Below, piece by piece: positions 7,637 through 43,121 of a stretch of DNA of 44,188 nucleotides. The stretch lies in IMG/VR virus record IMGVR_UViG_2541047701_000003; one strand, given 5' to 3'. How positions within the stretch are numbered: the first letter of the stretch is position 1; every line of letters begins with the position of its first letter. The notes under the pieces are model-generated. The model had not been told where the DNA came from. It made no database searches and saw only the letters and a list, made by a program, of their open reading frames with translations. The stretch is from a virus. Taxonomy: Duplodnaviria; Heunggongvirae; Uroviricota; Caudoviricetes. The translations under genes were made by a program, and so were the position numbers.

Positions 7637-7988
7637 AATTATCTCCATTTTTACAAATGAATTTTGTCGATGCGGTGCCTGGTGCCTCCAGGTGACGTTA
7701 ACCAGTTAACAATTAACGCCGGATAATCCACCCATAACACTGATGCTTTTAACTGTGCCGCGTGCGCTTAGCCGCATTCACCGCATCACAAAATTCACTT
7801 TAAAAAGGGGCGGCAGGGCAGCCACGGAGTAGAACTGATGCCGCCAAAGACTACACATAGCAATGTCGTTATTTACAACCGGAGGCGCACTCCCACCATT
7901 TAAATTTAACAGACAAGACCGACTCTTTATGAATACCGGAAATGCGCCTTCGTGTTGTGCGCCTGTCTTTTTACCACTTCAGGCTCGG

Positions 7989-8031: not shown

Positions 8032-8226
8032 ATGGATAATAAAGACAAAGCCTGGCTACTTGCTTTAGCTTTCAGCATCAGATCGCAGCGAGAAACAACT
8101 CATCAAGAATTTTTCTCGGAAATCGAGAATGCTGAGAATGAGTTTTTGTCACTACTCAATGAACGTGATGCTAAAAAAAGCGCCGATTCACTTAAGGCTT
8201 GGGCGAAACTAGGCTCTTCAAAATAA
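8032..8226 (+). CDS. Hypothetical small protein, opposite strand to the early-left operon
   Basis: 64-aa ORF with own promoter-like element; predicted helical/amphipathic. Confidence 0.4.
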   Translation: MDNKDKAWLLALAFSIRSQRETTHQEFFSEIENAENEFLSLLNERDAKKSADSLKAWAKLGSSK

Positions 8227-8410
8227 TTGCTTCTGTAGCGGCATGAACAACTGTTTTTGCCGCCTCTTCAACTTCCTTGTCTGGACGACCAGCCTTTACT
8301 TTTTCTGCAATGACATCCAGCACAGTTGGAAGAACCTTGCTAATAAGCATGGCTGCCACATCTTTGCTGCACAATTGACCGTTAATAACAACCAGATCTT
8401 CACCAACCAT
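8192..8410 (-). CDS. Hypothetical small protein
   Basis: 72 aa from ATG with AAGGGG SD (MVGEDLVVINGQLCSK...); 3' end overlaps the convergent 8032..8226 ORF by 35 nt. Confidence 0.45.
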   Translation of the reverse strand: MVGEDLVVINGQLCSKDVAAMLISKVLPTVLDVIAEKVKAGRPDKEVEEAAKTVVHAATEAIILKSLVSPKP

Positions 8411-8653
8411 CTTTTTTCCCCTTAACGCCGGGTGGCGGAACGTTTTATCTACTGCGCTTTGTATCAATCAACAACTGCCGTCATGTTCGTATGCCTCAGG
8501 CTGGCTACTTAGCCCTGTTCAGTGGCTGGATAACTCGAGGTATTGTCCTGCCGTTCTCTGGTGGGGCGTTGTTTGGATATGCTTATTAAACACAATGCGT
8601 TTTCTTATGTCAACACGAAATGTGTTTTATGGTGAGTGTCATATGATGATGGT

Positions 8654-8679
8654 ACAAAAAAGCCCGCTGATAGCGGGCT
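8654..8679 (-). terminator. Rho-independent terminator after the repressor gene
   Basis: On minus strand AGCCCGC-tatca-GCGGGCT followed by TTTTTT. Confidence 0.5.
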
Positions 8680-8709
8680 GATTGGCATATTACTGTGATA
8701 GCAAGATCA

Positions 8710-9129
8710 TTACTCCGGTGGGGGATTATCTTTAAGCCTGCCTCTCAAATATTTTTCTACATACTCATCGATTTCTTTTAGCCGGACTTCAAATAGCTCA
8801 ATCATTCGTTGTTGTTCTGAGCCCGGTAGCTGGTTAAACAACTCAAGAAGTTTTCGTTGGGATTCATTTAACCACAATTCAGAAGATTCCTGTTCTCCAA
8901 ATAGGAGCTCAGGAGGAGATATGCCAAGTGCCTTTCCCAATACGACAGCGTCATGCACTCCAACATTTCTGCTGCCCGCCTCATAGTTACCTATACGCGA
9001 TTGCGTCCATCCGCAGATTTCAGCAAGTTTTCCTTGAGATAAACCAAGCTTCTGCCTGCGCTCTTTAAGACGCATTGCAATTTTGTCATTGAGCCTACTA
9101 GCGGCAATTTTTTCGTTTTCTTTTTCCAT
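8710..9129 (-). CDS. Prophage repressor, XRE-family HTH (cI/RacR-like)
   Basis: 139 aa; HTH LGLSQGKLAEICGWTQSRIGNYEAG; divergent from Cro-like gene across an operator-containing intergenic region. Confidence 0.7.
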   Translation of the reverse strand: MEKENEKIAASRLNDKIAMRLKERRQKLGLSQGKLAEICGWTQSRIGNYEAGSRNVGVHDAVVLGKALGISPPELLFGEQESSELWLNESQRKLLELFNQLPGSEQQRMIELFEVRLKEIDEYVEKYLRGRLKDNPPPE

Positions 9130-9140
9130 TGCATCCTTGT

Positions 9141-9155
9141 ATCACGAATCGTGAT
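9141..9155. promoter_or_regulatory. Candidate operator palindrome in the divergent promoter region
   Basis: ATCACGA-A-TCGTGAT perfect palindrome; second palindrome ACACA-agg-TGTGT at 9188..9200; TTGACC -35-like at 9177..9182. Confidence 0.45.
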
Positions 9156-9225
9156 TTATATAAAACACAAAACAGCTTGACCATATAACACAAGGTGTGT
9201 TTAAAATTGTCATCGGAGGTTTTCA

Positions 9226-9468
9226 ATGAACAAAATTTCAACATATCGAAAACAGCTTGGGCTGTCTCAAAGACAACTTGCTGTTCAGTTAGGGTGGATA
9301 CAAAGCCGACTGGCAAATTACGAAGCAAATTTTCGTACCCCTGGACTAGAGGAGTGCAGAAAAATTGTTTCTACCCTTAATCGGCTTGGCGCTCATTGTG
9401 GACTTGACGATGTATTCCCCCCAGACGGTAAGCATAGCGAAAACAGCATAGGAGCGGTTGATTCATGA
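9226..9468 (+). CDS. Cro-like HTH regulator (YdaS-like)
   Basis: 80 aa; HTH LGLSQRQLAVQLGWIQSRLANYEA; GGAGG SD; first gene rightward of operator region. Confidence 0.6.
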   Translation: MNKISTYRKQLGLSQRQLAVQLGWIQSRLANYEANFRTPGLEECRKIVSTLNRLGAHCGLDDVFPPDGKHSENSIGAVDS

Positions 9469-9887
9469 AAATCAGGCATGAGCACATCGAATCAGTGTTG
9501 TTAGCCCTGGCAGCCGAAAAAGGGCAGGCGTGGGTCGCTAACGCAATTACTGAAGAATATCTGCGCCAGGGGGGCGGCGAATTGCCCCTTGTACCAGGCA
9601 AGGACTGGAACAATCAGCAGAATATCTATCACCGTTGGTTGAAAGGTGAAACGAAAGCGCAAAGGGAAAAAATTCAGAAACTGATCCCTGCGGTTCTGGC
9701 AATTCTTCCGCGCGAGCTGCGTCACCGACTCTGCATCTTCGATACCCTGGAACGCCGTGCATTACTGGCGGCGCAGGAAGCGTTGAGTACGGCAATTGAT
9801 GCGCATGATGATGCAGTCCAGGCCGTTTACCGGAAAGCACATTTCAGCGGTGGTGGGTCGCCCGGCGATTCTGTCGTAGTGCATTGA
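9465..9887 (+). CDS. YdaT-like protein (early regulator/toxin family of Rac)
   Basis: 140 aa, ATGA-coupled to Cro-like gene; size and position match ydaT of Rac. Confidence 0.5.
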   Translation: MKIRHEHIESVLLALAAEKGQAWVANAITEEYLRQGGGELPLVPGKDWNNQQNIYHRWLKGETKAQREKIQKLIPAVLAILPRELRHRLCIFDTLERRALLAAQEALSTAIDAHDDAVQAVYRKAHFSGGGSPGDSVVVH

Positions 9888-9932
9888 TTGAAATTAATCG
9901 TGCCGGATTGTTTTGTTCGGTATCAGTTAAAT

Positions 9933-10350
9933 GTAACGCTGCGAGCGTTACAAGGTGAAAACAAATGGCTTCAAACTGGATAAAGCTCGAGGTTATTACG
10001 CCGGATAAGCCGGAAATATTCAGGCTTGCTGAGATTCTGAATATTGATCCAGATGCCGCATTAGGGAAGGTTATTCGCTTCTGGGCATGGGCGGATCAAC
10101 AAATGATAGACGGTAATGCAGATTGTAACGCTCGCGGCGTTACAAAAAGTGCAATAGATCGCATCACTTTTATGGCTGGTTTTGCTGATGCGTTAATTCA
10201 GGTTGGATGGCTGGTCGAAAATGACGGTGGGCTTTCTCTACCTAACTTTGAACGTCATAACGGGAAAAGCTCTAAAAAACGGGCGGTTACAAACGAGCGA
10301 GTTACAAAAATACGCGAACTGAAACGAAAAGGTAACGCTGCCAGCGTTAC
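9933..10350. repeat. Iteron-like palindromes, probable origin of replication within and upstream of the initiator gene
   Basis: GTAACGCT-n3-AGCGTTAC at 9933..9951, 10125..10143, 10332..10350 plus GTTACAAA direct repeats at 10286 and 10301. Confidence 0.45.
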
Positions 10351-11095
10351 ACAAACGGATCAAAAAGCGTTACCAGAGGAAGAGGAAGAGGAAGATATAA
10401 ATACTGATCTAACCCATCCCAAACCCTTCCCTTCCGGAAGGGAGTTCCGGGATTTTGTGGCTGGAGTGCTTGAGGGGAGATTATCTGGCGGTACTGCAGC
10501 GGAATTTTGTAATTCTGCGGTGGTTGCGTTGCAGGCTGCTGGCCTGGATGTCTGTCGTGAGTATCCGGTGCCAGAGCGTGGTGACGGCTGCGGAGGGCGG
10601 ATTGATATCGTCGTGACTGACAGGAACGGTGTCCGGTGTGGGATCGAGCTTGACCGAAATTCTCCGCGACAGAAATCACTGCTCAAAATCAGTGCTGTTG
10701 AAACCGGGATATGTGTCTTGCGGCGCAGTGATATCGCAAGGCACACCGAGCAGGGAATTCTGGTTATCGGTGGGGCTGTTCGCCAGAAAAAATTTGACCC
10801 GTTGTCTGTTGATCTGCCCGACTGGTTGCCAGAAACACTCTGGCATGAGTGGGTTCAGTTCAGGCAGGCATTGCGAAAACCGATTCGAACGGAGCAGGGC
10901 GCTAACGGGGCGATACGGGAGCTGGAAAAATTCCGCCAGCAGGGTTTTACCCCTGAGCAGGTGATTAGACACAGCATCGCCAATGAATACCAGGGCTTGT
11001 TCGCGCCGAAAGGCGTTCGGCCTGAGACGTTACTCCGACAGGTTAACACCGTCTCGTTTCCAGACAGTGCTATCCCGCCAGGCTTCAGGGGGTAA
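9965..11095 (+). CDS. Phage replication initiator (lambda O-like role)
   Basis: 376 aa; contains iterons in its 5' part, acidic EEEEEED linker, followed by DnaC-like loader. Confidence 0.6.
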   Translation: MASNWIKLEVITPDKPEIFRLAEILNIDPDAALGKVIRFWAWADQQMIDGNADCNARGVTKSAIDRITFMAGFADALIQVGWLVENDGGLSLPNFERHNGKSSKKRAVTNERVTKIRELKRKGNAASVTQTDQKALPEEEEEEDINTDLTHPKPFPSGREFRDFVAGVLEGRLSGGTAAEFCNSAVVALQAAGLDVCREYPVPERGDGCGGRIDIVVTDRNGVRCGIELDRNSPRQKSLLKISAVETGICVLRRSDIARHTEQGILVIGGAVRQKKFDPLSVDLPDWLPETLWHEWVQFRQALRKPIRTEQGANGAIRELEKFRQQGFTPEQVIRHSIANEYQGLFAPKGVRPETLLRQVNTVSFPDSAIPPGFRG

Positions 11096-13484: not shown

Positions 13485-13579
13485 TTAAATTTAGCACTGT
13501 AAATAAAATCAAATCCTTAACCGGAGGGATTTCTGCACCCTCAGAACATCAGGAGGCCGTCCGAAAGGGCGGTAGTGAA

Positions 13580-13762
13580 ATGCGAAAACTCAAAATAATT
13601 ATTGAAACGGGAATAGCCGGTGGAGATTTCGAGGATGAATTCGAAGTGGATGATGATGCAACACCAGATGAAATACAGGATGAAGCTAAAGATATTTTCT
13701 TTAACTACTGCAATTACTCATACCACGAAATAAAAGACGAAGAGGAAGAACAAAATGGCTGA
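13580..13762 (+). CDS. Hypothetical acidic small protein
   Basis: 60-aa ORF, very acidic; weak RBS. Confidence 0.3.
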   Translation: MRKLKIIIETGIAGGDFEDEFEVDDDATPDEIQDEAKDIFFNYCNYSYHEIKDEEEEQNG

Positions 13763-13931
13763 TTTTGGTTCAACTAAATATAACGCCAGTTTTGAAGAAT
13801 GGCATGAACTGTTAATGGATTATGCAGAGTTACGCGGTGGAAGTGCCGCTGATGCTGAAGCATGGCGTGATGATTATGAAGCAGGGAAAACACCGGTCGA
13901 AGCATATTGTGATGAGTGGGGCGATGAATGA
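13755..13931 (+). CDS. Hypothetical small protein (not in ORF track)
   Basis: 58-aa ORF MADFGSTKYNASFEEWHELL...; start overlaps previous stop and its stop overlaps the next ATG. Confidence 0.35.
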   Translation: MADFGSTKYNASFEEWHELLMDYAELRGGSAADAEAWRDDYEAGKTPVEAYCDEWGDE

Positions 13932-14287
13932 GCGAGATTAATTATCAGGAAGGGCATGAAAAGGCAGGGCAGGCAAAACCAGTGGCATGGCGATATCGCT
14001 ACGTGAAAAAAGGCGTTACAGACTTTCAGGGGAAGCAGTGGGTTGGTGACTGGAAATATGTCCCGACAAAAGAGGATTGTAACGACAGACCAAACTATGA
14101 AATTCAGGCGTTATTCACGGCCCCGCCAGCTTCGGTGACATCAGAAGGACTGGTTAAAGCTGTGCGCTTTTATGAACAGGTACGGCGTGAGGATCCGCCA
14201 GTTGAAACCGGAGCATGGAAAGACGCTATTGACTGGGTGCTCAAAGAGGCTTGCCTGGCTGTAAATATAGGCATCAAAGGAGGGTGA
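13928..14287 (+). CDS. Hypothetical protein
   Basis: 119-aa ORF, translationally coupled. Confidence 0.5.
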   Translation: MSEINYQEGHEKAGQAKPVAWRYRYVKKGVTDFQGKQWVGDWKYVPTKEDCNDRPNYEIQALFTAPPASVTSEGLVKAVRFYEQVRREDPPVETGAWKDAIDWVLKEACLAVNIGIKGG

Positions 14288-14288
14288 T

Positions 14289-14576
14289 ATGGCAACTTTG
14301 CAGGAATTAATCGACCTGACGCCAGAACAGGAAAAAGCGTGGAATCGCCTTGTAAAGGCTGTAAAGGATTTCAGGGCAGCCGGAGGAAAGTTTTATAGCG
14401 TCCTGGACACGCTGAGCGCATACAACGGCGAGCACGTTGCCAGCATTGATAACGATAAGGGCTACCACACTGCAAGCGTCTATATGCCTAGCATTGATGC
14501 GCCAGGGCTAACCAGTTGGGCTGATGATTGGCACGGCATCACGCTGAAAGATGGGGTTGAAGTGGATGAGGACTAA
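14289..14576 (+). CDS. Hypothetical protein
   Basis: 95-aa ORF with GGAGGG SD. Confidence 0.5.
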   Translation: MATLQELIDLTPEQEKAWNRLVKAVKDFRAAGGKFYSVLDTLSAYNGEHVASIDNDKGYHTASVYMPSIDAPGLTSWADDWHGITLKDGVEVDED

Positions 14577-15171: not shown

Positions 15172-15325
15172 AAACGGTTTGCGGGAAAAGGAGAGTTAAG
15201 TAGAATTGCTGCGGGTGCTTGAGGCTATCTGTCTCAGGCATGAACACCAAAAGGCAGATAGAGAAAAGCCCCAGTTAACATTACGCGTCCTGCAAGACGC
15301 TTAACATTAATCTGAGGCCCAATCT

Positions 15326-15538
15326 ATGTCTCACAAATGTAGGTTAGCCTCTTACGTGCCGAAAGGCAAGGAGAAGCAGGCTATGAAGCAGCAAAAGGCG
15401 ATGTTAATCGCCCTGATCGTCATCTGTTTAACCGTCATAGTGACGGCACTGGTAACGAGGAAAGACCTCTGCGAGGTACGAATCCGAACCGGCCAGACGG
15501 AGGTCGCTGTCTTCACAGCTTACGAACCTGAGGAGTAA
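15326..15538 (+). CDS. mok: Mok-like reading frame (N-terminal extension of hok)
   Basis: 70-aa ORF in frame with hok, as in chromosomal mok/hok loci. Confidence 0.45.
   Translation: MSHKCRLASYVPKGKEKQAMKQQKAMLIALIVICLTVIVTALVTRKDLCEVRIRTGQTEVAVFTAYEPEE
15383..15538 (+). CDS. hok: Hok/Gef-family type I toxin
   Basis: 51 aa MKQQKAMLIALIVICLTVIVTALVTRKDLCEVRIRTGQTEVAVFTAYEPEE, typical Hok sequence; 5'/3' fold-back complementarity in flanking RNA. Confidence 0.75.
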   Translation: MKQQKAMLIALIVICLTVIVTALVTRKDLCEVRIRTGQTEVAVFTAYEPEE

Positions 15539-15608
15539 GAGACCAGGCGGGGGAGAAATCCCTCGCCACCTCTGATGTGTCAGGCATCCTCAACGCACCC
15601 GCACTTAA

Positions 15609-15628
15609 CCCGCTTCGGCGGGTTTTTT
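15609..15628 (+). terminator. Rho-independent terminator of hok mRNA
   Basis: CCCGC-ttcg-GCGGG followed by TTTTTT. Confidence 0.6.
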
Positions 15629-15813
15629 GTTGCGCGCTGAATACGCAGGGTGAAAAATAACCATATATTTGATTATATACACAACAAAAAATAAAAGTCA
15701 TTGTATCTGCACATTAAATAATCAAATATACGGCGTGAAATAAATATTTTTCAGATTAATATTTTTGTCTCTATGTGGATATAACCGTTTGTACTTATAA
15801 ACTCGGAGGCATC

Positions 15814-16026
15814 GTGGAAAAAATAAAGAAACTATTTAGTTGCAAATACGCAGTCATACGTCGTGATGACCTGTCAGTTATAGTCGAAATGGATTACTTC
15901 CCTGAAACCCCAAAATCAATGATGTATCGTAATGGTCGAAAGGCAATTTTTTTACCGATGAGGTTAAGTGACATTATGGGAAATGATAAACTGCTGGATG
16001 AATTGCGAGTCAGAGCATCCTGTTAG
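15814..16026 (+). CDS. Hypothetical protein downstream of an AT-rich promoter region
   Basis: 70 aa from GTG with GGAGG SD; start uncertain (ORF track begins at 15775). Confidence 0.35.
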   Translation: MEKIKKLFSCKYAVIRRDDLSVIVEMDYFPETPKSMMYRNGRKAIFLPMRLSDIMGNDKLLDELRVRASC

Positions 16027-16697: not shown

Positions 16698-16987
16698 TGG
16701 TGGATTTACGTAAAGCGGCGCGGGGGCAGATGTGCACCGTCAGAATTCCTGGCTACTGCAATCACAATCCCGAAACTTCTGTGCTGGCGCATTACAGGCT
16801 GGCGGGGACGTGCGGAACAGCGACAAAACCACACGATATGCAGGCAGCGATTGCCTGTAGCTCATGCCACGATTTAATCGACGGGCGGGTAAAAACCAGC
16901 GATTACACCAAAGAAGAATTACGCCTGATGCATGCAGAAGGTGTTTTTCGCACACAAGAAATCTGGAGAAAGGAAGGTTATTTATGA
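16697..16987 (+). CDS. DUF1364-like protein (YbcO-like, putative nuclease, Cys-rich)
   Basis: 96 aa with C..C / C..C..H motifs; ATG overlaps previous stop. Confidence 0.5.
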   Translation: MVDLRKAARGQMCTVRIPGYCNHNPETSVLAHYRLAGTCGTATKPHDMQAAIACSSCHDLIDGRVKTSDYTKEELRLMHAEGVFRTQEIWRKEGYL

Positions 16988-17538
16988 TTTACCCAACAAA
17001 TACAGGCAAAAGCGGGGAACACCTTCGTCTCACCACGCTGGAAAGAGTCTGGATTCAGGGAAAACTGCGCATGTGGGGGCGCTGGTCGTATATTGGCGGC
17101 GGTAAGACGGGAAATATGTTCAACCAGTTGCTGACCTCTAAAAAGCTGACAAAAACGGCAATTAACGAGGCGCTCCGGAGGATGAAAAAAGCAGGTCTGG
17201 ACAAACCTGAACTTGAGGCTTTTTTGCGGGATATGATCAACGGCAAGCAAAAAAGCTGGCTGGTGCATTGTACTGATGCAGAGGCGTTATGCATTGATCG
17301 TGTGATTAGTGAAGTGCTGGCAGAACACCCAGGATTGATTTGTATCCTCCGGCAACGATATGAAGGGAGGGGGATGACTAAGCGAAAAATGGCTGAATTG
17401 CTGAATGATTCACACCCTGAGTGGTGTTACGCCACGTGCCGTAATCGCATAGATGCGTGGTTGAAAATGGCAGAGTTTATGCTCTATCTGCCGATGCGTG
17501 ATGCATTCTCTTCCGGGGATCTAAAAACCGTCTGTTGA
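16984..17538 (+). CDS. Late-gene antiterminator Q-like protein
   Basis: 184 aa; RMWGRWSYIGGG motif reminiscent of Q-family; immediately followed by promoter plus terminator (pR'/tR' arrangement). Confidence 0.5.
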   Translation: MIYPTNTGKSGEHLRLTTLERVWIQGKLRMWGRWSYIGGGKTGNMFNQLLTSKKLTKTAINEALRRMKKAGLDKPELEAFLRDMINGKQKSWLVHCTDAEALCIDRVISEVLAEHPGLICILRQRYEGRGMTKRKMAELLNDSHPEWCYATCRNRIDAWLKMAEFMLYLPMRDAFSSGDLKTVC

Positions 17539-17564
17539 CTCAATCTGTTATCCGGGGCTATATT
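17535..17564 (+). promoter_or_regulatory. Candidate late promoter pR'
   Basis: TTGACT (17535..17540) - 18 nt - TATATT (17559..17564) directly after Q stop. Confidence 0.4.
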
Positions 17565-17625
17565 CCTCACGCGCCAGCAAAATCTGGCGTCGGGATTGGC
17601 GTCCTGGATAGAGACCGCGACAGAT

Positions 17626-17648
17626 ACACGCCGCGAGCGTGTTTTTTA
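17626..17648 (+). terminator. Candidate tR' terminator
   Basis: ACACGC-cgcga-GCGTGT followed by TTTTTTATT about 60 nt downstream of the -10. Confidence 0.5.
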
Positions 17649-17808
17649 TTGTCGTATGCACGCGCACATCTGAATTATGGTGGGCTGTGTGGGGGCGGAG
17701 AGATCCGCGCCGGTCGGTTTCCCGGTTACGCCAACCCCGCACAGTTCACCACCAGACGATTGGCGTCGTCGGTGGTGAGTTATTAAGAAACCACCAGAGG
17801 GCGTCATT

Positions 17809-18420
17809 ATGACAACTCAAATTTCTGTTGAAACTCTCTCCCCTATCACCCATAACCAGATTCCTGTTATTACCACCGAACTTTTGGCGCAGCTTTACGG
17901 CACTGAGCCGGTGCGTATTCGCCAGAATCATCATGAGAACAAAGCACGCTTCGTTGAAGGGAAACACTTTTTCAAAGTTGTTGGTAATGACCTTAAAGAA
18001 TTGCGGGTAGCTTTAAACTACTCACAAAATTTGCGGGTTACTTTAAGTAACTCACAAAATTTGCAACCATCTTTAAGAGGGTTACAAATTTCCCCGAAAG
18101 CCCGCTCCCTCATCCTCTGGACAGAACGCGGAGCAGCCCGTCACGCCAAAATGCTCGAAACCGATCAGGCGTGGGATGTGTTCGAAAAACTGGAAGACTG
18201 CTATTTCAGACAAAAGGATCCGTCAGCGCCAGCTTCATGCCAGAAAAGTTACGACACGCGAGTTCTCTGTTATCAGCGAGGCGGTGTCACTGTTTCCACA
18301 ATTCAGTTGCGGGATGATGATATTGTTATTTCCCTTGAGTCATGGCTGGAACTGGCGAGAGCCAATGGTTGGTTTGTTGTTCGCAGAGATAAACTGGTGG
18401 AAAGGTTGATGCAGCTTTAA
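17809..18420 (+). CDS. ORF6N-domain protein (putative antirepressor-like DNA-binding protein)
   Basis: 203 aa; N-terminal ELLAQLYGTEPVRIRQNHHENKARFVEGKHFF resembles ORF6N/KilA-N-type domains; recall-based. Confidence 0.5.
   Translation: MTTQISVETLSPITHNQIPVITTELLAQLYGTEPVRIRQNHHENKARFVEGKHFFKVVGNDLKELRVALNYSQNLRVTLSNSQNLQPSLRGLQISPKARSLILWTERGAARHAKMLETDQAWDVFEKLEDCYFRQKDPSAPASCQKSYDTRVLCYQRGGVTVSTIQLRDDDIVISLESWLELARANGWFVVRRDKLVERLMQL
18001..18090 (+). repeat. Three imperfect 30-bp in-frame tandem repeats inside the ORF6N gene
   Basis: cttta(a)a...ctcacaaaatttgcgggt units at 18011..18040 and 18041..18070 with partial flanking copies; encodes LRVALNYSQN/LRVTLSNSQN. Confidence 0.5.
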
Positions 18421-42980: not shown

Positions 42981-43095
42981 AAATGGTAACTAATTGAATG
43001 CATTAATATGCAATGGTACGTGTTTGGGATTAAAAGATGAGCGTGATTTTGTTTAACACATTAATTTAAAAAGGGTTTCTTGTTTGTTGACGAAA

Positions 43096-43121
43096 ACAGG
43101 AATCGTGTTCGGTCTCTTTTT
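43096..43121. repeat. attR core (direct repeat, displaced copy of sdsR 3' end)
   Basis: acaggaatcgtgttcggtctcttttt matches 577..602 at 24 of 26 positions. Confidence 0.6.

Follow-up and report, generated by a model that had tools for sequence, protein, structure and literature searches.

In phage 434, the N-terminal domain of the repressor and the Cro protein are homologous all-helical helix-turn-helix (HTH) proteins with similar recognition helices, which act at the same three operators between divergent promoters. The Cro of phage lambda, by contrast, is folded differently and shares no homology with the repressor CI, and the lambda promoter of the repressor gene (PRM) has the operators OR2 and OR3 at -42 and -19. 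In CP-933P, the parts of CI, Cro and CII are played by PaaR2, YdaS and YdaT, which do not form a toxin-antitoxin pair (PMC8630535; also PMC5917428). The footprints of PaaR2 and YdaS overlap in a 97-bp spacer and both proteins repress both promoters (PMC8630535), while YdaT has its site, TTGATT-N6-AATCAA, at the end of ydaS (PMC9986795). DicA and DicC are likewise a CI/Cro-like bistable pair, in which DicA is relieved by the antirepressor Rem (PMC10448788), and the Gifsy repressors, which are not cleaved, are relieved by LexA-controlled antirepressors (PMC3121763). The locus considered here can be compared with all these systems. It lies in a window of 44,188 nucleotides (the whole stretch of DNA analysed, IMG/VR virus record IMGVR_UViG_2541047701_000003, Caudoviricetes), where a repressor gene and a cro-like gene diverge from a 96-bp spacer. 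From its sequence, it is very probably an immunity switch on the lambda/434 plan, belonging to a Rac-like lambdoid prophage and using shared CAC-N5-GTG operators, a reading to which we give a probability of about 80%.

With regard to the homology between the DNA-binding domains of repressor and Cro, 434 is the closest system. However, the 434 operator is ACAA-N6-TTGT (14 bp) instead of CAC-N5-GTG in a 15-bp site, its repressor has a cleavable C-terminal domain of S24 type that is absent from the repressor of the window, and the Cro of the window has an extra conserved C-terminal segment. Lambda is the closest system in operator half-site and layout. Gene order and logic are alike, the outer operator bases TATCAC recur, the lambda residues Q33, Q44 and S45 are kept in both proteins of the window, three OR sites lie about 23 bp apart at the lambda distances from the repressor start codon, and there are a terminator and a leftward promoter with its own operators. 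In contrast to lambda CI, which is RecA-cleavable, the repressor has no S24 domain, and CII is replaced by an unrelated YdaT-family protein.

CP-933P and Rac are the closest systems in this CII analogue. CP-933P, whose PaaR2 and YdaS are likened here by published description, also combines a short CI analogue with a Cro analogue and YdaT, has a spacer of nearly the same length and carries a YdaT box at the end of the cro-like gene. It differs by its GTTTAGTAA-type operator repeats and by a repressor heading the paaA2-parE2 toxin-antitoxin operon, which is absent from the window, and its YdaT is a distant relative of the one found here (E 1.7e-6). The window shares with Rac the flanking genes recET, kil, ydaT and ydaV. 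In the control domain of the repressor, the closest systems are DicA of prophage Qin, which is likewise built of two parts and corresponds over its entire length, and the Gifsy repressors; however, DicC and YdaS belong to the P22_Cro/YdaS families and have no similarity to the Cro of the window. Lastly, VT1-Sakai, mEpX1, mEp213, ECP1, GF-2 and S107 have the same HTH family in both partners, the same CAC-N5-GTG operator triplet and the same promoter register, whereas their repressors, of 212-217 residues, carry a Peptidase_S24 C-terminal domain in the place of the DicA-like one.

Divergent genes, predicted operators and promoters

The two open reading frames (ORFs) of the initial annotation lie where it had placed them (Table 1), and the spacer between them holds both of the palindromes that it had reported. 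The repressor matches Pfam HTH_3 (PF01381) with 49.4 bits (curated cut-off 23). The Pfam scan detected HTH_3 only and no Peptidase_S24 in its 139 residues, so that it does not belong to the autocleavable LexA/CI type; as a control, the same scan found Peptidase_S24 in the CI of VT1-Sakai (E 3e-26). BLASTP aligns it with DicA over the full length (29% identity, E 2e-15), with a shared ..LLELFN.LP.SEQ.. segment. Since its score against the NCBIfam DicA model NF007257 is 57.2 bits for a cut-off of 101 (residues 15-133 aligned to positions 4-131 of 135), it can be regarded as DicA-like in architecture and not as a DicA orthologue. An N-terminal HTH, a DicA-like helical C-terminal domain and the lack of a cleavage domain in a protein of this size are the traits of the short non-cleavable repressors of Gifsy/DicA type. 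The N-terminal domain matches the structure of the 434 repressor (1per, E 6.5e-4) and also aligns with the N-terminal domains of the lambda and P22 repressors.

The Cro-like protein matches only HTH_3 (39.3 bits, cut-off 23), HTH_19 and HTH_31 among Pfam families. Its closest solved structure is 28tn_A, an 82-residue "lambda repressor-like protein" (E 8e-15), and its conserved C-terminal segment reads ..CR.IV..LN.LG...LDDVFPP. A kinship with DicC or YdaS was rejected, as it gives no BLAST alignment to DicC and no match to the YdaS and P22_Cro profiles (PF15943, PF14549), which DicC and YdaS themselves match in the same scan. Searches of phage genomes by tblastn indicate that the pair belongs to a module found in many lambdoid phages: in VT1-Sakai, mEpX1, mEp213, ECP1, GF-2, Edno5 and S107, the cI products are 48-58% identical to the N-terminal domain of the repressor and the cro products 54-62% identical to the Cro-like protein (54-55% for VT1-Sakai, mEpX1 and mEp213).

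The HTH segments of the two proteins had been described as near-identical. The likeness is real but was overstated, 16 of 25 residues (64%) being the same between repressor residues 28-52 and Cro residues 11-35. The alignment of the whole proteins by BLASTP is nevertheless significant (19/42 identities, E 2e-10), and the repressor N-terminal domain and Cro are homologous as in 434. In lambda repressor, Q33, Q44, S45 and N55 are base- or Gln44-contacting residues; they correspond to Q32, Q43, S44 and R54 of the repressor and to Q15, Q26, S27 and R37 of Cro, so that the proteins of the window share their residues at all four positions. In this comparison with the lambda N-terminal sequence, the aligned range agrees with that of an independent match to PDB 1lli; Cro aligns to lambda only through S45, and its R37 was placed via the alignment to the repressor of the window. 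Q44 and S45 of lambda are reported to read positions 2 and 4 of TATCAC.

Both OR palindromes, one of them perfect over 15 bp, share the form A-W-CAC-R-N3-Y-GTG-W-T. The pattern AWCACRNNNYGTGWT, built from these two sites, has five matches at no more than one mismatch in 44 kb, for 1.6 expected, and only 1 of 100 shuffles reaches five. Four of the five fall within 8589-9201 and are OL1, OL2, OR3 and OR1 of Table 1; the match at OL2 is exact although this site took no part in the construction of the pattern. The palindromes are thus more than chance. The operator centres lie at 9148, 9171 and 9194 for OR and at 8596 and 8619 for OL, every spacing being 23 bp, and the half-site of OR3 is TATCACG. 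Another operator-like sequence, AACAGGAATCGTGTT at 43095-43109, was rejected: it has one mismatch, which is compatible with the chance expectation for the window, and stands beside TTGACG with no convincing promoter around.

Natural variation points to the same sites. A scan of IMG/VR with the Cro alignment gave 80 loci, 65 of them with the repressor type of the window, and these provided 28 distinct spacers free of indels. Only 1 of 30 operator-arm columns is variable in these spacers, compared with 34 of the 66 other columns (Fisher p 1.8e-6). The arm columns are the 6-bp arms, both of OR3, both of OR1 and the left one of OR2, as defined from the sequence of the window; the list of variants had been viewed before they were counted. 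Variation is found at the site centres (9148-9149 and 9193-9196), across the right half of OR2 and between the sites; in OR2, 9162-9172 are invariant and 9173-9176 variable. Judging from these variants, the operator arms are under purifying selection.

In the candidate PR, OR1 occupies the spacer and -10 and OR2 covers the -35, and the PL candidate has the same two-site arrangement. The VT1-Sakai record annotates three operators together with PR and PRM in the same register. Counted from the putative start at 9129, the centres of OR2 and OR3 are at -42 and -19. The -10-like TACAAG stands 6 nt 5' of the repressor ATG, and relatives carry TAAAAT, TATAAA or TACATT 6-7 nt before theirs. Because of this lambda-like placement and these hexamers, and since the PaaR2 mRNA was found to be leaderless by 5' RACE (PMC8630535), it is suggested by analogy that the repressor transcript may be leaderless. 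All promoter positions should be taken as predicted, since a consensus promoter scan of the window reported none of PR, PRM and PL, whose -10 hexamers end in A or G or whose total match is too low. An exact 11-nt direct repeat, AAAACAGCTTG, is present at 9169-9179, in OR2 and the PR -35, and at 9249-9259 inside cro (codons RKQLG), and may be due to chance.

The gene that overlaps the cro stop codon encodes a protein matching Pfam YdaT_toxin (PF06254; E 5e-11, 43.3 bits for a cut-off of 21) and PHROG 163, 'CII-like transcriptional activator' (E 1.5e-36). At the junction of the two genes lies a box resembling the YdaT site of CP-933P; boxes of this type within one mismatch number two in the window, for 0.15 expected. 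A repeat finder detected no inverted repeats within cro-ydaT, and the box was found only with the pattern from the literature. The second box, TTGATTTTTAATAATCAG at 2115-2132, has the same single mismatch and stands just upstream of xis, between ORF 2164-2424 and xis (1776-2063), both on the minus strand; a repeat resembling a hairpin, CGCCAGTA...TACTGGCG, comes after it. This box may be a PI-like promoter for xis and int activated by the CII-like YdaT.

The locus shows what defines a lambdoid immunity region: divergent repressor and cro genes, repeated palindromic operators over the promoters, then a cII analogue and replication genes. The switch could work as follows. A repressor dimer would bind the 15-bp operators, OR1 and OR2 covering PR and the two OL sites covering the leftward promoter, and would prevent the expression of cro, ydaT, the replication genes and the kil/DicF operon. 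From OR2 it could activate its own weak, probably leaderless PRM, which could be shut off through OR3, located inside it. Cro would recognise the same core of the half-sites but most likely rank the sites differently; it is proposed to bind OR3 first and so to turn the repressor gene off. YdaT would act as CII analogue through its box, and induction would go through an antirepressor, the repressor lacking an S24 domain. The switch had been called simple, a description that does not suit a locus where three OR and two OL sites are combined with a repressor that is not cleavable and a CII-like YdaT that has a box to itself.

Table 1. Predicted features of the immunity locus and of its related parts (positions in the window; strand given where it applies)
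Feature	Position	Strand	Basis
Candidate PL-like promoter: -35 TTGACA (8613..8608), 17-nt spacer, -10 TTTAAT (8590..8585)	8585..8613	-	read from sequence
OL1, AACACAATGCGTTTT, left half good, right half weak	8589..8603		one-mismatch pattern match
OL2, AACACGAAATGTGTT	8612..8626		exact pattern match
Intrinsic terminator 3' of the repressor gene: 8-bp stem, 6 GC pairs, T run	8661..8679	-	terminator scan
Repressor (CI analogue), 139 aa, N-terminal HTH_3 and short helical DicA-like C-terminal domain	8710..9129	-	Pfam, BLASTP to DicA
Candidate PRM: -10 TACAAG (9141..9136), -35 TTTATA (9164..9159), start at A of ATG (9129)	9136..9164	-	inference
OR3, ATCACGAATCGTGAT, perfect 7+1+7 palindrome closest to the repressor gene	9141..9155		pattern scan, conservation
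OR2, AACACAAAACAGCTT, only left half-site conserved, right half overlapping PR -35	9164..9178		spacing, conservation
Candidate PR: -35 TTGACC (9177-9182), 17-nt spacer, -10 TTTAAA (9200-9205)	9177..9205	+	same register as VT1-Sakai annotation
OR1, AACACAAGGTGTGTT, 6+3+6 arms, within PR spacer and -10	9187..9201		pattern scan, conservation
Exchangeable immunity cassette: PL/OL, terminator, repressor gene, OR/PRM/PR; cro excluded	8582..9225		blastn vs L038, L080/L085
Cro analogue, 80 aa, XRE/HTH_3 type	9226..9468	+	Pfam HTH_3
YdaT (CII-like) box, TTGATTCATGAAAATCAG, TTGATT-N6-AATCAG, at cro stop / ydaT start	9458..9475		one mismatch to CP-933P site
YdaT-family protein, CII analogue	9465..9887	+	Pfam YdaT_toxin, PHROG 163, PDB 8bt1/3c4r
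isrK/C4-type RNAs (17558-17756), then ORF6N anti-repressor-like gene (17809-18420), tentative accessory part	17558..18420	+	Rfam, PHROG, Pfam
Type 1 cassette (window): helix GWTQSRIGNYEAG; OR3 ATCACGAATCGTGAT; OR1 AACACAAGGTGTGTT; exact OL site AACACGAAATGTGTT
Type 2 cassette (vB_Apl-pPE4): helix GWSGSSRIANYEAG; OR3 ATCACGATGTGTGAA; OR2 CTCACGTATCTGTAG; OR1 CTCACGAAATGTGAA; OL CTCACATATCGTGAG

Probable shared operators and the alternatives

Comparative data give good support to an operator set shared by the repressor and Cro. In IMG/VR loci recovered via the similarity of Cro, the divergent repressor carries a G(W/Y)..SR..NYE helix in 160 cases out of 160. A matrix of 18 immunity regions gives a mean of 37.4 bits between the Cro proteins of this class and the repressors of the same class, compared with 13.8 bits for other repressors of DicA architecture. 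For all pairs taken together, own pairs score 30.9 bits and non-own pairs 21.5, a value reached by none of 100,000 permutations.

Furthermore, the phages phiPSA1, ENT1 and YMC11/07/P54, chosen from the list of Cro matches alone, have a Cro of the same family with a different helix 3 (TQGAIAHYE, STGAVCHYE and TQAAIGHYE). Their repressor helices match these (TQGGVAHWL, TKGAVSHWL and TQGAVAHWL), and their spacers contain repeats of TAC type and not of CAC type. Since these three distant relatives of Cro have matching repressor helices together with different operators, the Cro helix, the repressor helix and the operator change together, as read from these sequences, at the level of the class. The residue that precedes QSR in Cro (I, N, G, R or S) also occurs in fixed combinations with repressor variants, the independent cases being too few for a test. 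A more precise code was considered, by which a Gln in position 1 of helix 3 would read A in position 2 of the half-site. It agrees with the window, pPE4 and pAEv1818, but was dropped as a rule because the VT1-Sakai repressor has Pro there while its sites keep A.

The relation between Cro and operators can also be followed through natural exchanges. The 80 loci contain two Cro alleles, that of the window (A) and one about 76% identical to it (B), which differ at only two positions in their first 47 residues, and each allele occurs with both of two repressor types. When the window is compared by blastn with a locus that has the type 2 cassette and the same Cro (L038), identity is 99.7% over 8200-8581 and 99.4% from 9226 on, and only a 78% stretch aligns in between. 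The breakpoints are sharp, just outside the PL -10 on one side and at the cro ATG or about 12 nt before it on the other. Because the same breakpoints are seen in the B lineage (L080 compared with L085), which is about 22% diverged, the combination of one Cro with two cassettes is not a one-off accident; each cassette differs by about 22% between lineages, and so do the flanks. In the type 2 cassette, OL2 AACACGAAATGTGTT is replaced by CTCACATATCGTGAG. The good half-sites of type 1 read AACAC and most of those of type 2 read CTCAC, while OR3 keeps its ATCACG left half in both. The two repressors would therefore seem to differ in their reading of the first half-site positions, Cro tolerating both sets or preferring TATCACG at OR3.

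A bolder interpretation, which we put forward tentatively and consider possible but doubtful, is that immunity specificity resides in the block of OL, repressor gene and OR and that this block is exchanged without cro. One Cro could then serve two, probably heteroimmune, sets (AACAC/WTQSR and CTCAC/WSGSSR) through the Cro-preferred TATCACG kept at OR3, and would be a generic factor that shuts off the repressor gene and not a determinant of immunity. This would differ from the classical immunity regions of lambda, 434 and 21, in which cro travels with cI.

Several points weigh against the switch as proposed, with its shared operators. OR2 is only a half-site. The 160 loci are interrelated and stand for far fewer independent events, with 17 distinct helix combinations among them. 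Within the class, own pairs score 38.3 bits and cross pairs 37.3 (p 0.16); the sequences show no matching at the level of alleles, so that co-variation of this kind within the family was rejected and only the class-level signal is real. Since own and cross scores do not differ significantly, the similarity between repressor and Cro is a trait of the family, not special to this pair. As one Cro HTH occurs with two cassettes, the specificities overlap but are probably not identical, the CAC-N5-GTG core being what the two proteins would have in common. The position of PRM is ambiguous: the repressor gene is equipped with a Shine-Dalgarno sequence (AAGGA), and TGGTCA-17-TATAAA could be an alternative promoter for a transcript with a leader. 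With regard to induction, tblastn of K-12 Rem found no homologue in the window (best E 0.28), a difference from Qin and Rac. The window contains no LexA box either: the single match to CTGT-N8-ACAG (41588) is no more than chance would give, and even the best CTG-N10-CAG boxes depart from the LexA consensus at 7 or more positions. The claim of the initial annotation that both proteins probably compete for the same operators can therefore be kept in part: the DNA-binding domains are homologous, the contact residues alike and the comparative data fit shared operators, but an identical specificity is unlikely.

An incomplete overlap could go as far as a division of labour, Cro acting only at TATCACG (OR3) and the repressor only at the AACAC sites (OR1, OR2, OL), with no competition between them. 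OR3 does have ATCAC in both halves while every other good half-site of the window is AACAC, and the type 2 cassette keeps ATCACG at OR3, with the same Cro, beside its CTCAC sites of repressor type. However, the two proteins have identical residues at the four contact positions of lambda type, and all the sites share the CAC-N5-GTG core. Repressor and Cro of lambda and 434 occupy the whole operator region with differing affinities, which also counts against a strict division, and both proteins do so in CP-933P (PMC8630535). We regard this alternative as unlikely.

It would be much less probable still that the likeness of the HTHs is that of XRE-family proteins in general and carries no information on targets. 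The LGLSQ..LA..G motif is common in HTH_3 proteins and the own-pair scores, which are no higher than the cross-pair ones, agree with such a view. It leaves unexplained, however, the distance between the 37 bits that Cro scores with the repressors of its own class and the 14 bits with others of DicA architecture, the pairing of the helix motif at all loci, and the joint change of helix, partner helix and operator type in phiPSA1, ENT1 and YMC11.

The names in Pfam and RefSeq (YdaT_toxin, 'toxin YdaT family protein') and early reports of toxicity of YdaS and YdaT upon RacR depletion (PMC5700373, PMC5700377) might lead to considering the cro-like gene and ydaT as a toxin-antitoxin pair or a toxin module kept in check by the repressor. 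There is little chance that this is so, since experiments on CP-933P show YdaS to be the analogue of Cro and YdaT that of CII, which do not form such a pair (PMC8630535; Jobling's letter, PMC5917428), and the genes of the window occupy the canonical places of cI-cro-cII-O, accompanied by operator sites and a YdaT box.

Finally, although the divergent genes contain, in their 5' parts, a long and imperfect inverted repeat (9060-9086 with 9230-9256, 70% complementary), a recent duplication or gene conversion is ruled out and the similarity is ancient, because the aligned 126 nt of repressor and cro genes are only 49% identical, with 14/42 identities (33%) at third codon positions and the same codon in 8 of the 19 identical residues, and the same pairing is found in phages of Escherichia, Citrobacter, Salmonella, Edwardsiella, Aeromonas, Pasteurella and Mannheimia.

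Possible induction route and prophage context

Since the repressor of the window has no S24 autocleavage domain, an antirepressor would be the expected means of induction, by analogy with DicA and the Gifsy repressors. ORF 17809-18420 is a candidate: it matches PHROG 2379, 'anti-repressor' (E 5e-93), and Pfam ORF6N, and could possibly be a route to inactivate the uncleavable repressor. Directly upstream of it, Rfam finds c4-a1b1 targets (17558-17610), isrK (17571-17647) and C4 antisense RNA (17673-17756), all above the gathering score, and the isrK/C4 RNAs lie downstream of a Q-like gene (16864-17538). The whole of 17558-18420 resembles a module of P1 immI or Gifsy-1 isrK-anrP type inside a lambdoid prophage. 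Gifsy-1, which is compared here by description, also has a short non-cleavable repressor, GfoR, inactivated by antirepressors (PMC3121763), and its order antQ-isrK-orf45-anrP (PMC4825925) is the same as that of Q-like gene, isrK and anti-repressor-like gene in the window (16864-18420). It differs in that its antirepressor genes are LexA-controlled, whereas no LexA box was found in the window. A control by the SOS response was rejected, the LexA-type matches being no better than chance, as was an antirepressor of Rem type; the 70-residue ORF that follows hokD (15811-16026) belongs to PHROG 1813, of unknown function.

Over 1.5 kb around the switch, the window is 100% identical in DNA to a chromosomal prophage of E. 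coli FDAARGOS_1289 that adjoins yebY. The order of genes in this prophage is int, xis, ralR, recT, recE and kil, then repressor, Cro-like protein, ydaT and replication genes, then Q-like gene, lysis genes and terminase. On the grounds of this match and this order, the element of the window is assigned to the Rac-like lambdoid prophages of E. coli and the locus to its immunity (lysis/lysogeny) region. Near-complete copies of the switch region occur in 153 of 5,426 complete E. coli genomes, and a sequenced phage isolate has the region with the sister cassette. The best match to the repressor in a phage record is 66% identical. Literature searches found no account of this immunity type, which appears never to have been studied before. 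The locus is nevertheless an ordinary, uncharacterised example of a well-known kind of switch. In PP818812.1 (Actinobacillus phage vB_Apl-pPE4), identity to positions 8400-9900 of the window is 96.4% over 55% of the query and the Cro protein is 100% identical; the stated Actinobacillus host looks doubtful.

Other features of the prophage were noted. The host small RNA (sRNA) pair SraC/RyeA (minus strand) and SdsR/RyeB (plus strand) at 462-606 is immediately adjacent to the integrase gene (734-1810) and shows where the prophage meets the chromosome. The prophage also encodes two RNAs of type I toxin-antitoxin systems: RalA (2168-2346), which is antisense to ralR, and sok with hokD (15213-15631), the hokD region being 98.9% identical to that of K-12 Qin. 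An Rfam match to DicF RNA (7808-7859, minus strand) lies in the leftward early operon near kil-like genes, which would place a cell-division-inhibiting sRNA of dicF type under the presumed PL. The replication-initiator ORF (9965-11095) encodes 376 residues in the window, compared with 264 annotated in the otherwise near-identical FDAARGOS_1289 prophage (13566-14360); its N- and C-terminal parts match different PHROG families, with an insert at residues 157-270 (PHROG 1347).

Module exchange and phage immunity

Repressors of VT1-Sakai, mEp213, GF-2, S107, Pmp14 and a Mannheimia phage are 212-228 residues long and carry an S24 domain, whereas those of the window, pPE4, Chris1 and pAEv1818 have 126-139 residues and a DicA-like domain. 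In Klebsiella phage Kp4865-4, the same DicA-like C-terminal domain is joined to a different HTH and accompanied by a Cro of YdaS type. Since the same HTH family occurs with either an S24 or a DicA-like C-terminal domain, it is evident from these sequences that shuffling has brought together different DNA-binding modules and control domains, the type of Cro following that of the repressor HTH.

The present analysis offers a map of the locus with five operators, three promoters, a CII-type box and a candidate antirepressor, all of them predicted, and it corrects the label 'toxin YdaT', which is misleading. It also indicates that nature pairs one DNA-binding module, made up of HTH, operators and Cro, with an S24 autocleavage domain in some phages and with a domain of DicA type in others. 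The exchange of a cassette without cro is the one feature that specialists might find worth an experiment. The block of repressor and operators is swappable under an unchanged Cro and, together with the shuffling of modules, such exchanges may be seen as small natural experiments on how the specificity of phage immunity diversifies.

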